This document shows positions 319-19,107 of a DNA stretch of 64,000 bases, piece by piece. Position 1 is the stretch's first letter; every line of letters starts with the position of its first letter. The DNA lies in the NCBI RefSeq assembly GCF_024502345.1, contig NZ_JALDNN010000001.1; one strand, written 5' to 3'. The DNA comes from Escherichia coli (GTDB lineage Bacteria > Pseudomonadota > Gammaproteobacteria > Enterobacterales > Enterobacteriaceae). A model generated the notes under the pieces. That model searched no databases, had not been told where the DNA came from, and saw only the letters and a list, made by a program, of their open reading frames with translations. The position numbers were made by a program, and so were the translations under genes.

Positions 319-1779
<1,461 letters not shown>

Positions 1780-1868: not shown

Positions 1869-1906
1869 TTGGCACAGGTTTGTACAACGTAACAGTACAA
1901 TATGAA

Positions 1907-2836
1907 TTACTTCTCTTTCCCGCGCCCGTGCATCTCCTGAAACAATTTACCGACCTCAACAAAATAATCCGTCAGCGAGTTGATCACGACCTGTACCTTC
2001 AGCGGCAGCTTATCTTTTTCGGTATATAACGCATAAACCGGGCGTGGATCTGACTGATAACGCGGCAGCAGGATCTCCAGCTCCCCACGATTGATCTCGT
2101 TGATCACCCACATCAGCGGCACGTAGGCGATCCCGGCACCCGCCGTTAGCCAGCGCACCAGCGTCATCGGATCATTAGTCACAAATCTCCCTTGCGGGAT
2201 CAGGCGAGTCGAGATCCCTTCCGGTGCGATCAGTTCAAATTCATTGTCGGGCCGCACGCTGTATTCAAGCCATGAATGGCTACTTAAATCGGCGGGTTTT
2301 TCCGGTATGCCGTATTGTGTGAGATAGCTTTTCGCGGCGCACACCACCATTGGCATCGCGCCAAGACGGCGGGAAAACAGGCTGGAATCCTGCAACGCGC
2401 CGACGCGGATCACCACATCCAGACCGTCGGCAATCAGGTCGGGGGCTGGAATTCCGGTAACCAGATTGACGCTCAAACCTGGGTATTCTTTCAGCATTTT
2501 TGCTGTCAGCCCGGCGAGAACATTTTGTGCCATAGTTGAAGAACAGCCAATGCGTAGCGTCCCGATGGGGGTGTTATTGAAGGCATACAGTTGCTCATGA
2601 ACATCCTGCACTTCATGAAGCATCCGACGGCAGCCCTGGTAGTAAATTCTGCCGGCTTCGGTCAGGCCAATGCTGCGTGTGCTACGGTTTAACAGCTTTA
2701 CCTGCAACTCATCTTCCAGTTTTGACACCGTCTGACTGATGGACGAAACGCTCATCTGTAGCTGTCTGGCGGCGGCGGTAAAAGAGCCAAATTCAACTAC
2801 TTTGGCAAACACCGACATGCGTTTTAGTCGTTCCAT
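1907..2836 (-). CDS. aaeR: LysR-type transcriptional activator of aaeXAB
   Basis: ORF track 309 aa with N-terminal LysR HTH (MSVFAKVVEFGSFTAAARQLQMSVSSISQ); divergent from aaeXAB. Confidence 0.93.
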   Translation of the reverse strand: MERLKRMSVFAKVVEFGSFTAAARQLQMSVSSISQTVSKLEDELQVKLLNRSTRSIGLTEAGRIYYQGCRRMLHEVQDVHEQLYAFNNTPIGTLRIGCSSTMAQNVLAGLTAKMLKEYPGLSVNLVTGIPAPDLIADGLDVVIRVGALQDSSLFSRRLGAMPMVVCAAKSYLTQYGIPEKPADLSSHSWLEYSVRPDNEFELIAPEGISTRLIPQGRFVTNDPMTLVRWLTAGAGIAYVPLMWVINEINRGELEILLPRYQSDPRPVYALYTEKDKLPLKVQVVINSLTDYFVEVGKLFQEMHGRGKEK

Positions 2837-3229: not shown

Positions 3230-4162
3230 GTGAAAACACTAATAAGAAAATTCTCCCGTACGGCCATCACGGTCGTATTAGTCATTCTGGCCTTCATCGC
3301 AATTTTTAATGCCTGGGTCTATTACACCGAATCCCCCTGGACGCGTGACGCGCGCTTTAGCGCTGACGTCGTTGCGATCGCGCCGGACGTTTCTGGACTC
3401 ATTACCCAGGTGAATGTTCATGATAACCAGCTGGTGAAAAAAGGACAGATACTGTTCACCATCGACCAGCCGCGCTATCAAAAGGCGCTTGAGGAAGCGC
3501 AAGCCGATGTTGCTTATTATCAGGTACTGGCACAGGAGAAACGCCAGGAGGCCGGACGTCGTAACCGTCTCGGTGTGCAGGCGATGTCTCGCGAAGAGAT
3601 CGACCAGGCTAACAACGTACTACAAACGGTTCTGCATCAGTTAGCGAAAGCGCAGGCGACCCGCGATCTGGCAAAACTGGATCTTGAACGCACGGTGATC
3701 CGCGCGCCAGCAGATGGCTGGGTGACCAACCTCAACGTCTATACCGGTGAGTTTATTACTCGAGGATCAACGGCGGTTGCGCTGGTGAAACAGAACTCCT
3801 TCTATGTACTGGCCTATATGGAAGAAACTAAGCTGGAAGGGGTGCGTCCGGGGTATCGTGCAGAGATCACGCCGCTTGGCAGTAACAAAGTGCTGAAAGG
3901 GACTGTTGATAGTGTTGCCGCTGGGGTCACCAACGCCAGCAGCACGCGTGACGACAAAGGGATGGCGACCATCGACTCTAACCTTGAATGGGTGCGTTTG
4001 GCGCAACGTGTTCCGGTTCGTATTCGTCTCGACAACCAGCAAGAGAACATCTGGCCTGCGGGCACCACTGCTACAGTGGTGGTCACTGGCAAACAAGATC
4101 GCGACGAAAGCCAGGATTCGTTCTTCCGTAAAATGGCCCATCGCCTGCGTGAGTTTGGTTAA
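3230..4162 (+). CDS. aaeA: p-hydroxybenzoic acid efflux pump, membrane fusion subunit
   Basis: ORF track 310 aa; GTG start at 3230; N-terminal TM segment then HlyD-like coiled coil. Confidence 0.92.
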
Positions 4163-16118: not shown

Positions 16119-17467
16119 TTAATAAAATAGCGTGATTGTGGCAATCATATTCACCACGAAACCGACTGCCATGGGGATCGCTGTCCGCTTCACCACCGCA
16201 AAAGGCGAAACGCCTGCAATTCCTGACGTAACGACTACCACCGCAGTAATCGGCGAAACCGCGCGCGCTAGCGTCGTGGCAAAATGCATCGGCATAATCA
16301 TTACAACCGCTGGTACATGTAGTCCGGCTGCGATATTCGGAATAAGACTGGCAAATGACATAAACGGCGCATTGCCAGAGCCCATCACAATGGCACAAAT
16401 GGCAATGACCAGCGCCATAATAATCATCACGCCAATACCGCCCAGACCAGAATGCTCCGCACCCCTGATAACCGCATCGACAGTGCCAATCGTCGTTAAG
16501 CCTTTCGCAAATATTTCACCCGCGACCACCAGCGTTACGACGTTGGCAAACTGCGTACCCATGCCGTCAAAAAACGCCTGCACATCGTCCATTGTTTCGC
16601 GCAAGTTATGCTTGCGGAAGAACTCAACAAACATCGTCACCGTCAAACTCAGTAACATCACCACCACCAGATGCAGTTCTGACTGCATCAGCCCGATGTG
16701 GGCAAGGAATAGCGAGCCGAGCATCAGGATTAACGGCATCACAGGTAAAATGGCGTAATAGAGCGGCGGGACATTATCGAGAGCTTTTTGCTCTGCCTGT
16801 TCGTGATTGATATTTTTATCTTTTTTGTCAAAAGCGCGTTGCACGAAAAAGTGGGAGATCGCCACCGAGATAATGACGCAAGAGGCGACCGGAAGCTGGT
16901 AGTGGAAGAAGTAAGTGGCAATTTTCATTCCCGCGACCTGGGCTGCAAAAATGGAGTTCGTTTCCAGAATCCCCCACTCAATGGACATTGTGGTTGCGAT
17001 AACCGCCACCGCAGAGAGACGGCTTACTCCCAGACTCACCAGTGTCGGAAATAAGGTGACCATCAGCAACATACCCAGGCCGGAGGCGCTGGTAATAAAC
17101 TGCGCCATGATTTGGCCGATGACGTAAGTTGCCGACAGAATAATATACGGCGAGCGAATGAGTTTTAACGGGCGGCTTAACAAGCTCACCATCGCGCGAC
17201 TGGCTCCTGTGCGCTCCATGTAGCGGGCATAACCGCCCACCGCCATAATCGACAGCCCCAATCCGGCAATGCGGTTGGACAGCATGCGCAGGATTTCATT
17301 ATAAATATCGACGATCAAGTAGCCGCTGCTTTTGGCGGGATCGAGTACACCACCGAACCCTAACCAGACACCGCACATCATCAGGAAGATACCTGCGGCA
17401 GCCAGCACCACCTGAGGTTTGTAGTTTTTCAGGATCAAATAGCCCATCGTAATTAATACGATGACAG
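16119..17467 (-). pseudogene. dcuD: C4-dicarboxylate transporter DcuD with its 5' end (start codon plus about 7 codons) displaced by IS1
   Basis: ORF track 442 aa from an internal Met; the frame stays open upstream (VIVLIT) straight into the IS1 left end at 17468; native DcuD as I recall it is 455 aa starting MFGIIIS. Confidence 0.75.
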
Positions 17468-17490
17468 GGTGATGCTGCCAACTTACTGAT
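17468..17490. repeat. IS1 left terminal inverted repeat
   Basis: 23-bp imperfect inverted repeat of 18213..18235. Confidence 0.9.
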
Positions 17491-17522
17491 TTAGTGTATG
17501 ATGGTGTTTTTGAGGTGCTCCA

Positions 17523-17798
17523 GTGGCTTCTGTTTCTATCAGCTGTCCCTCCTGTTCAGCTACTGACGGGGTGGTGCGTAACGGCAAAAGCACCGCCGGA
17601 CATCAGCGCTATCTCTGCTCTCACTGCCGTAAAACATGGCAACTGCAGTTCACTTACACCGCTTCTCAACCCGGTACGCACCAGAAAATCATTGATATGG
17701 CCATGAATGGCGTTGGATGCCGGGCAACCGCCCGCATTATGGGCGTTGGCCTCAACACGATTTTCCGCCATTTAAAAAACTCAGGCCGCAGTCGGTAA
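17523..17798 (+). CDS. insA: IS1 InsA
   Basis: ORF track 91 aa [24 protein letters not shown]..., matches InsA. Confidence 0.97.
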
Positions 17799-18220
17799 CC
17801 TCGCGCATACAGCCGGGCAGTGACGTCATCGTCTGCGCGGAAATGGACGAACAGTGGGGATACGTCGGGGCTAAATCGCGCCAGCGCTGGCTGTTTTACG
17901 CGTATGACAGGCTCCGGAAGACGGTTGTTGCGCACGTATTCGGTGAACGCACTATGGCGACGCTGGGGCGTCTTATGAGCCTGCTGTCACCCTTTGACGT
18001 GGTGATATGGATGACGGATGGCTGGCCGCTGTATGAATCCCGCCTGAAGGGAAAGCTGCACGTAATCAGCAAGCGATATACGCAGCGAATTGAGCGGCAT
18101 AACCTGAATCTGAGGCAGCACCTGGCACGGCTGGGACGGAAGTCGCTGTCGTTCTCAAAATCGGTGGAGCTGCATGACAAAGTCATCGGGCATTATCTGA
18201 ACATAAAACACTATCAATAA
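17717..18220 (+). CDS. insB: IS1 InsB (made as InsAB' transposase after a -1 frameshift)
   Basis: ORF track 167 aa [21 protein letters not shown]..., in the -1 frame relative to insA. Confidence 0.95.
17774..17780 (+). promoter_or_regulatory. IS1 programmed -1 ribosomal frameshift site (A6C)
   Basis: AAAAAAC heptamer in the insA/insB overlap. Confidence 0.8.
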
Positions 18221-18235
18221 GTTGGAGTCATTACC
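18213..18235. repeat. IS1 right terminal inverted repeat
   Basis: 23-bp imperfect inverted repeat; contains the insB stop codon. Confidence 0.9.
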
Positions 18236-18315
18236 AGAAAACCCTGCCATTTTCCCCTACTTTCAATCCTGTGATAGGATGTCACTGATGATGTTAATCA
18301 CACTGACCTTACAGA

Positions 18316-19107
18316 ATGGGCCTTATGAACGCATTTGATTCGCAAACCGAAGATTCTTCACCTGCAATTGGTCGCAACTTGCGTAGCCGCCCGCTGGCGC
18401 GTAAAAAACTCTCCGAAATGGTGGAAGAAGAGCTGGAACAGATGATCCGCCGTCGTGAATTTGGCGAAGGTGAACAATTACCGTCTGAACGCGAACTGAT
18501 GGCGTTCTTTAACGTTGGGCGTCCTTCGGTGCGTGAAGCGCTGGCAGCGTTAAAACGCAAAGGTCTGGTGCAAATAAACAACGGCGAACGTGCCCGCGTC
18601 TCACGTCCTTCTGCGGACACCATCATCGGCGAGCTTTCCGGCATGGCGAAAGATTTCCTTTCTCATCCTGGTGGGATTGCCCATTTCGAACAATTACGTC
18701 TGTTCTTTGAATCCAGCCTGGTGCGCTATGCGGCTGAACACGCCACCGATGAGCAAATCGATTTGCTGGCAAAAGCACTGGAAATCAACAGTCAGTCGCT
18801 GGATAACAACGCGGCATTCATTCGCTCAGACGTTGATTTCCACCGCGTGCTGGCGGAGATCCCAGGTAACCCAATCTTCATGGCGATCCACGTTGCCCTG
18901 CTCGACTGGCTGATCGCCGCACGTCCAACCGTGGCTGATCAGGCTCTGCACGAGCATAACAACGTTAGCTATCAACAGCATATTGCGATCGTTGACGCGA
19001 TCCGCCGCCACGATCCTGACGAAGCCGATCGTGCGTTGCAATCGCATCTCAACAGCGTCTCTGCTACCTGGCACGCCTTCGGTCAGACCACCAACAAAAA
19101 GAAATAA
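18316..19107 (+). CDS. nanR: sialic acid regulon repressor NanR (GntR family)
   Basis: ORF track 263 aa; only 80 bp separates its ATG from the IS1 right end. Confidence 0.94.

Follow-up and report, generated by a model that had tools for sequence, protein, structure and literature searches.

A complete, likely mobile IS1R with an intact A6C frameshift site adjoins a probable IS1-mediated deletion between dcuD and nanR in Escherichia coli

A copy of IS1 situated between dcuD and nanR in an Escherichia coli chromosome raises two linked questions: whether the A-rich heptamer in the overlap of insA and insB still supports production of a full transposase, leaving the element able to move, and whether the element has already altered the genes that adjoin it. 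The window, by which we mean the whole 64,000-nt stretch of DNA that was analyzed, is otherwise collinear with the E. coli core chromosome, running from aaeB to sspB and then through nan, glt, arcB and rpoN to ftsH, and in single-piece alignments to complete E. coli genomes its three parts reached best identities of 99.4%, 98.8% and 99.7%. The middle value belongs to 18236–43000 (nan-glt-arcB-rpoN), which at full coverage is more divergent than either flank. The account that we favor overall, and hold to be very probable, sees in the heptamer the -1 frameshift site of a complete autonomous IS1R that is likely mobile and that sits beside a prior local deletion.

Read directly from the letters of the window, AAAAAAC occupies element positions 307–313 (all feature coordinates are collected in Table 1), and its plus-strand context in the insA frame is ..CGC CAT TTA AAA AAC TCA GGC.., in which CAT TTA AAA AAC TCA encodes H L K N S. 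The start coordinates of insA and of the insB' frame in the ORF list leave remainders of 0 and 2 modulo 3, respectively, so insB lies in the -1 frame relative to insA; the first-pass annotation had described exactly this arrangement, with the heptamer inside the insA/insB overlap, and the coordinates bear it out. The A_AAA_AAC phase permits -1 re-pairing of AAA on AAA, and translation through a -1 slip at the AAA codon 17775–17777, with base 17777 re-read, gives a 232-residue InsAB' fusion with zero internal stops. This copy should thus be able to make InsAB', as had been anticipated, since the predicted fusion is uninterrupted and carries the full IS1 transposase domains. The insA start, offset to element position 56, matches the starts of RefSeq IS1 coding sequences at four other E. 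coli loci, and the RefSeq label on the homologous coding sequence elsewhere, which also spans 698 nt, is 'IS1-like element ... transposase, programmed frameshift'.

Taken by itself the number of such heptamers is unremarkable: AAAAAAC occurs 24 times on the two strands of the window against an expectation of 15.5 ± 4.3, a count reached in 5 of 100 shuffles and hence not significantly over expectation, as would suit a chance A-run with no recoding role. It is the context that makes the site non-random and that rules this reading out. The heptamer stands in canonical position and phase within an element identical to reference IS1, the motif is invariant across the 15 other distinct IS1 copies in the comparison, some of them isoforms that are 6–10% divergent, the homologous coding sequence bears the programmed-frameshift annotation in RefSeq, and mutation of the motif shifts IS1 transposition about 900-fold (PMC12428005); the probability that we leave to a chance run is vanishingly small. 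Folding the 100 nt 3' of the heptamer (17781–17880), under a model that pseudoknots lie outside of, gave an MFE of -32 kcal/mol, no different from the average of the shuffles (z = 0.03), and so lent no support to a downstream stimulatory structure; a possible pseudoknot at the IS1 frameshift region has been mentioned (PMC12428005). The frameshift mechanism and its rate, about 1.6–2%, were measured on other IS1 copies (PMC12428005, PMC12903888), with about 1.6% of IS1 transcripts translated into InsAB' (PMC12903888), and both frameshifting and transposition by the window copy would be expected to occur. That IS1 carries an A6C frameshift site is already known, textbook biology.

The element that houses the heptamer has its ends set by imperfect 23-bp inverted repeats whose arms are 78% complementary, and a search of the 64,000-nt window found no second IS1 copy, leaving this as the sole IS1 sequence. 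Within 17300–18400 the promoter scan, in which counts were at or below shuffle expectation, returned CTGCCA-16-TATGAT as the only sigma-70-like match; a weak IS1 promoter located partly over IRL has been described (PMC12428005), and the present site would be its counterpart, with a putative promoter function. Pfam models place Zn_ribbon_InsA at residues 1–36 of InsAB', HTH_Tnp_IS1 at 43–86 and DDE_Tnp_IS1 at 102–232 (E = 3.7e-78), with PF03811, PF12759 and PF03400 all scoring far over their cut-offs, and the NCBIfam equivalog NF033558 (transpos_IS1) scores 243.8 bits against a cut-off of 100. With all of the testable element-defining features found, the element is a member of the IS1 family, of the IS1R isoform. 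The 8- or 9-bp target-site duplication that marks a simple insertion is absent at this copy because 318 bp have been lost here relative to MG1655; such a duplication belongs to the insertion event and not to the element, and its absence is no argument against IS1 membership.

Table 1. Features of the IS1 copy and its flanks (window coordinates) and IS1 alleles of the dcuD–nanR spacer in this and other E. coli (MG1655-oriented coordinates; deletion alleles as left/right junction)
Feature	Coordinates	Strand	Description
Complete IS1	17468–18235	+	768 bp; ends set by inverted repeats
IRL	17468–17490	+	GGTGATGCTGCCAACTTACTGAT, 23 bp; same as IRL of MG1655 IS1A-D
Promoter-like site CTGCCA-16-TATGAT	17475–17502	+	overlaps IRL; candidate IS1 promoter
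insA	17523–17798	+	ORF, GTG start, 91 aa; repressor InsA, zinc ribbon and HTH
insB' frame	17717–18220	+	ORF, 167 aa; -1 relative to insA; DDE catalytic part
insA/insB overlap	17717–17798	+	82 nt, from ORF coordinates; holds the heptamer
A6C slippery heptamer	17774–17780	+	A_AAA_AAC phase in insA frame; -1 programmed frameshift site
Transframe insAB' coding region	17523–18220	+	698 nt; 232 aa after base 17777 is read twice
IRR	18213–18235	+	ATCAATAAGTTGGAGTCATTACC, 23 bp; same as K-12 IS1A-D end
5'-truncated dcuD	16119–17467	-	abuts IRL; ORF from internal Met, 442 aa versus 455 in MG1655
nanR upstream remnant	18236–18315	+	80 bp kept right of IRR
nanR	18316–19107	+	intact, 263 aa
20AR0300, QEC11-421	1605–1613		simple insertion, 9-bp duplication (CGATGACAG); exactly the left site of the window
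EC31	1897–1905		simple insertion, 9-bp duplication
K-12 C3026	1933–1940		simple insertion, 8-bp duplication; one base off the right junction of the window
EP91B	1943–1951		simple insertion, 9-bp duplication
This window	1613/1932		deletion allele
LR-48	1613/1930		deletion allele
FDAARGOS_943	1613/1918		deletion allele
CFSAN061770	1644/1897		deletion allele
TOE3	1613/sequence 0.57 kb from gltD		deletion allele; interval from IS1 to gltD carries no annotated nan genes

Over 768 of 768 nt the window IS1 is identical to the copy that lies beside catA1 on plasmid R100 (NC_002134.1, 21225–21992), and the two InsAB' proteins show no differences. Point mutations that would inactivate the transposase, for which the first-pass annotation had proposed a comparison with reference isoforms, are absent relative to active copies, there being 0 differences in 768 positions to R100. 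We take the R100 copy to be the reference IS1R. The original work on IS1 frameshifting and cointegration reportedly used R100-derived IS1. Compared with the MG1655 copies, the element differs from IS1B and IS1C at 2 nt, one of which places L217 in the window InsAB' where IS1B/C have Q217 and the other of which is synonymous, at C127 of the window copy; 7 nt separate it from IS1A, with F81 versus L81 and R130 versus S130 (window first). Changes private to K-12 copies are absent from the window element, namely L217Q of IS1B/C, H193Y of IS1D, which sits two residues past the E of the RIERHN motif, presumably the catalytic glutamate, and the stop at 163 of IS1F, whose insB carries a pseudogene annotation. 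IS1F and IS1X2, both divergent isoforms, also have R130, which makes S130 private to IS1A/E, and both likewise have L81, which makes F81 the derived state. Copies of IS1 at 99% identity or more are found in at least 4,960 plasmid records from more than 10 genera, among them Escherichia, Klebsiella, Enterobacter, Salmonella, Citrobacter and Shigella, and the best 25 of those plasmid matches are 100% identical to the window IS1.

Whether an element of this sequence moves can be judged from its relatives. In strain DAM a 768/768-identical copy splits yfcU, with the 9-bp duplication CCGTCGAAA on both sides, evidence that the isoform does transpose. Clinical isolates have also provided published de novo insertions of IS1R, one locus being nfsA (PMC10569738) and the other the region upstream of mgrB (bioRxiv 10.1101/134684). 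The competing reading is that the window copy is intact yet almost immobile, like K-12 IS1B, IS1C and IS1D, with F81 in the HTH, or the chromosomal context, crippling the binding or activity of InsAB', and that it would move only when another IS1 provides transposase in trans. This reading draws on strain BW25113, in which more than 99.9% of IS1 transposition is due to IS1A and IS1E (PMC12428005, 2025) and IS1B, C, D and F hardly move (about 1 event per 10^10 cells), L81F in the HTH being the speculated harmful cause (PMC12428005); such near-immobile copies move once InsAB' is over-supplied in trans (PMC12903888). The window copy, only 2 nt from IS1B/C, has the derived F81 in common with IS1B, C and D, and IS1A/E, shown to transpose in BW25113, have L81 and S130 and not the F81 and R130 found here. 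Every immobile K-12 copy, however, has an extra defect of its own (L217Q, H193Y or the stop at 163) that the window copy lacks, and the fresh duplication around the identical copy in yfcU, the presence of the isoform in thousands of plasmids across genera and the new IS1R insertions in clinical isolates all argue against near-immobility, which we consider very unlikely. Judged from its sequence, the window IS1 is, with good confidence, intact and potentially mobile, as the first-pass annotation had proposed from the heptamer; the full identity to R100 IS1, the two intact ends and the yfcU copy point the same way, and F81 keeps the conclusion at likely and not certain. Most likely, the copy would move at the usual low IS1 frequency.

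The flanks of the element record what it has left behind. The left flank (17459–17467) is CGATGACAG and the right flank (18236–18244) is AGAAAACCC, and comparison of the two found no 8- or 9-bp target-site duplication, the left 9-mer having no copy to the right of IRR. We mapped both flanks on MG1655 in the orientation of the window, which puts the ATG of dcuD (minus strand) at 1632 and that of nanR at 2012: the left flank stops at 1613 and the right flank begins at 1932, so that 318 bp are gone and IS1 stands in their place. The lost interval takes in the beginning of dcuD (19 nt, start codon included), the upstream/promoter region of that gene and most of the dcuD–nanR spacer, the left break falling at dcuD codon 7. 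The truncated dcuD is probably a pseudogene without a promoter. Its exact 442-aa product occurs elsewhere only in FDAARGOS_943 and one draft genome; the RefSeq name of this ORF in sibling genomes is 'DcuC'. On the other side nanA, nanT, nanE, nanK and yhcH follow nanR as full-length ORFs, collinear with E. coli genomes. In the MG1655 spacer the scan found only two sigma-70-like matches facing nanR, a number not above chance, and both are within the deleted interval, so expression of nanR may rely on other signals or IS1 read-through. The two matches occupy 3682–3743 of the MG1655 dcuD–nanR region extract.

The same spacer has been a repeated target in other E. coli (Table 1). In a search that joined same-orientation hits only, with alleles expressed in MG1655-oriented coordinates, at least five simple-insertion sites and five IS1-adjacent deletion alleles were tallied in roughly a dozen genomes. 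Among 5,426 complete E. coli genomes none has the exact 1613/1932 allele, and the best single-piece matches span 2 and 14 bp more; these distances are those of the right ends of the siblings LR-48 and FDAARGOS_943, which have the left junction in common with the window. In TOE3 the nan operon, from nanR through yhcH, is absent beside an IS1 with this same left junction. The 20-mer adjoining IS1 in TOE3 is not present in the window, whose match to this TOE3 flank begins 569 bp on, at gltD, so the size of the TOE3 deletion is approximate. The first-pass annotation had called the element relevant to the stability of the nan and dcuD loci, and this was an understatement, as the window has already lost 318 bp, among them the start of dcuD, and TOE3 is without the nan operon.

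Isoform comparisons connect some of these alleles to one another. The unusual IS1 isoform of QEC11-421 recurs in LR-48, almost unchanged and over its whole length, and EC31 and CFSAN061770 agree with each other in both isoform and right junction; to judge from these matches, both couples look like precursor/product pairs. IS1 copies at the identical dcuD left junction are differing mosaic isoforms, with 0 to 18 nt differences from the window copy clustered in blocks, a pattern that suggests either that IS1 copies have undergone gene conversion or that the same 9-mer has been hit more than once. The insertion in C3026, a laboratory derivative of K-12 (NZ_CP014272.1, ~3477.8–3478.6 kb), is an IS1A with the 8-bp duplication GAAAACCC, lies 72–79 bp upstream of nanR and is absent in MG1655. 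Away from this locus, strain Nord1 (NZ_CP139953.1, ~323.7–324.4 kb) has a 768/768 IS1 between yjiK and a gene for a DGQHR-domain protein, without a target-site duplication, which suggests another IS1-associated rearrangement.

Because other E. coli have simple insertions at both ends of the missing interval, together with sibling deletion alleles, the likeliest origin of the 318-bp loss appears to be an IS1-mediated adjacent deletion, and the order of events would be insertion and then deletion. Deletions adjacent to IS1 have been documented experimentally over 11–66 kb, including nfsB, with an abortive-transposition model cited (PMC10569738). None of the genomes compared showed a precursor with exactly the window isoform in its dcuD site. 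The loss could also have arisen by homologous recombination between two direct IS1 copies, one at target 1605–1613 in dcuD and the other at 1932–1940 upstream of nanR, the product sequence being identical under both models. Simple insertions of both kinds exist in the right orientation (20AR0300 and QEC11-421 on the left, C3026 one base off on the right), and the mosaic isoforms at the junction indicate that IS1 copies do recombine. Recombination would, however, take two insertions and one recombination for each of three alleles (1918, 1930 and 1932), for which adjacent deletion is the cheaper route, with a single insertion plus one event each; the 23 records covering at least 80% of the query showed no double-IS1 intermediate, and the LR-48 isoform is nearly that of the single-insertion QEC11-421 along its entire length. 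We regard recombination as an unlikely, though credible, source of the 318-bp loss.

With adjacent deletion as the preferred origin, the following sequence of events can be proposed. A weak promoter in IRL would start the IS1 transcript (PMC12428005, PMC12903888), and most ribosomes would terminate at the insA stop codon (17796–17798) to yield the InsA repressor, which would repress the promoter and compete at the IS1 ends (PMC12428005, PMC12903888). A rare -1 slip on A_AAA_AAC, for which site and phase were computed here and the rate comes from the literature, would instead give the 232-aa InsAB', and this protein, whose activity we infer, would act preferentially in cis on the intact 23-bp IRL and IRR. 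It would be expected to give simple insertions that duplicate 8 or 9 bp of target, cointegrates and adjacent deletions. At this locus the putative first step would be a simple insertion in dcuD at the 9-bp target CGATGACAG, and the second an adjacent deletion proceeding from the IRR end into an AT-rich IS1 target hot spot ~80 bp upstream of nanR. The window IS1 has thus probably already acted on its surroundings.

For annotation, the value of these observations is that the element can be recorded as an intact IS1 with a programmed-frameshift transposase and that the dcuD entry should carry a 5'-truncation flag, the gene being a pseudogene or, at the least, promoterless. The further IS1-adjacent deletions in sibling strains, one of which takes in the whole nan operon, mark the locus as structurally unstable. 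The window allele removes the only sigma-70-like candidate nanR promoters and puts nanR 80 bp downstream of IS1, and recurrent IS1 activity in the dcuD–nanR spacer, with a possible effect on nan regulation, amounts to a small population-genomics curiosity. A broader proposal, that a recurrent IS1 insertion/deletion hot spot rewires the regulation of sialic-acid catabolism in gut E. coli and Shigella, would apply if the events are selected; we think it decidedly unlikely.

Among known systems the closest is IS1R of R100 (NR1), which flanks catA1 and the r-determinant, as in Tn9, and which has the same ends, promoter region, insA, A6C site and insB' as the window copy, the R100 and window InsAB' both being WP_095033700.1; unlike the R100 element, the window copy is chromosomal, between dcuD and nanR, and is without a target-site duplication. 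K-12 IS1A and IS1E agree with it in length, IRL, IRR, A6C site and frame layout, but differ at 7 nt, with L81 in InsA and InsAB' where the window has F81 and S130 in InsAB' where the window has R130. The type II copies IS1B and IS1C, 2 nt away, have both F81 and R130 in common with it, and differ in Q217 (L217 in the window) and in the synonymous C127 of the window copy. Deletions of the nfsB type (PMC10569738) likewise start exactly at an IS1 end, keep the IS1 and leave no target duplication, and in the sibling alleles of the window deletion one junction is common and the other varies; in contrast to the 11–66 kb of those deletions, the loss here is 318 bp and was deduced by comparison. Finally, the -1 frameshift sites of the IS3/IS150/IS911 type likewise place an X_XXY_YYZ heptamer in the overlap between an upstream regulatory/DNA-binding ORF and a catalytic ORF downstream of it, and their heptamers, like that of IS1, keep the ratio of transposase to regulator low. 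The window site differs from that type in that folding detected no convincing downstream stimulatory stem-loop (z = 0.03), and the IS1 family has its own DDE_Tnp_IS1 domain.
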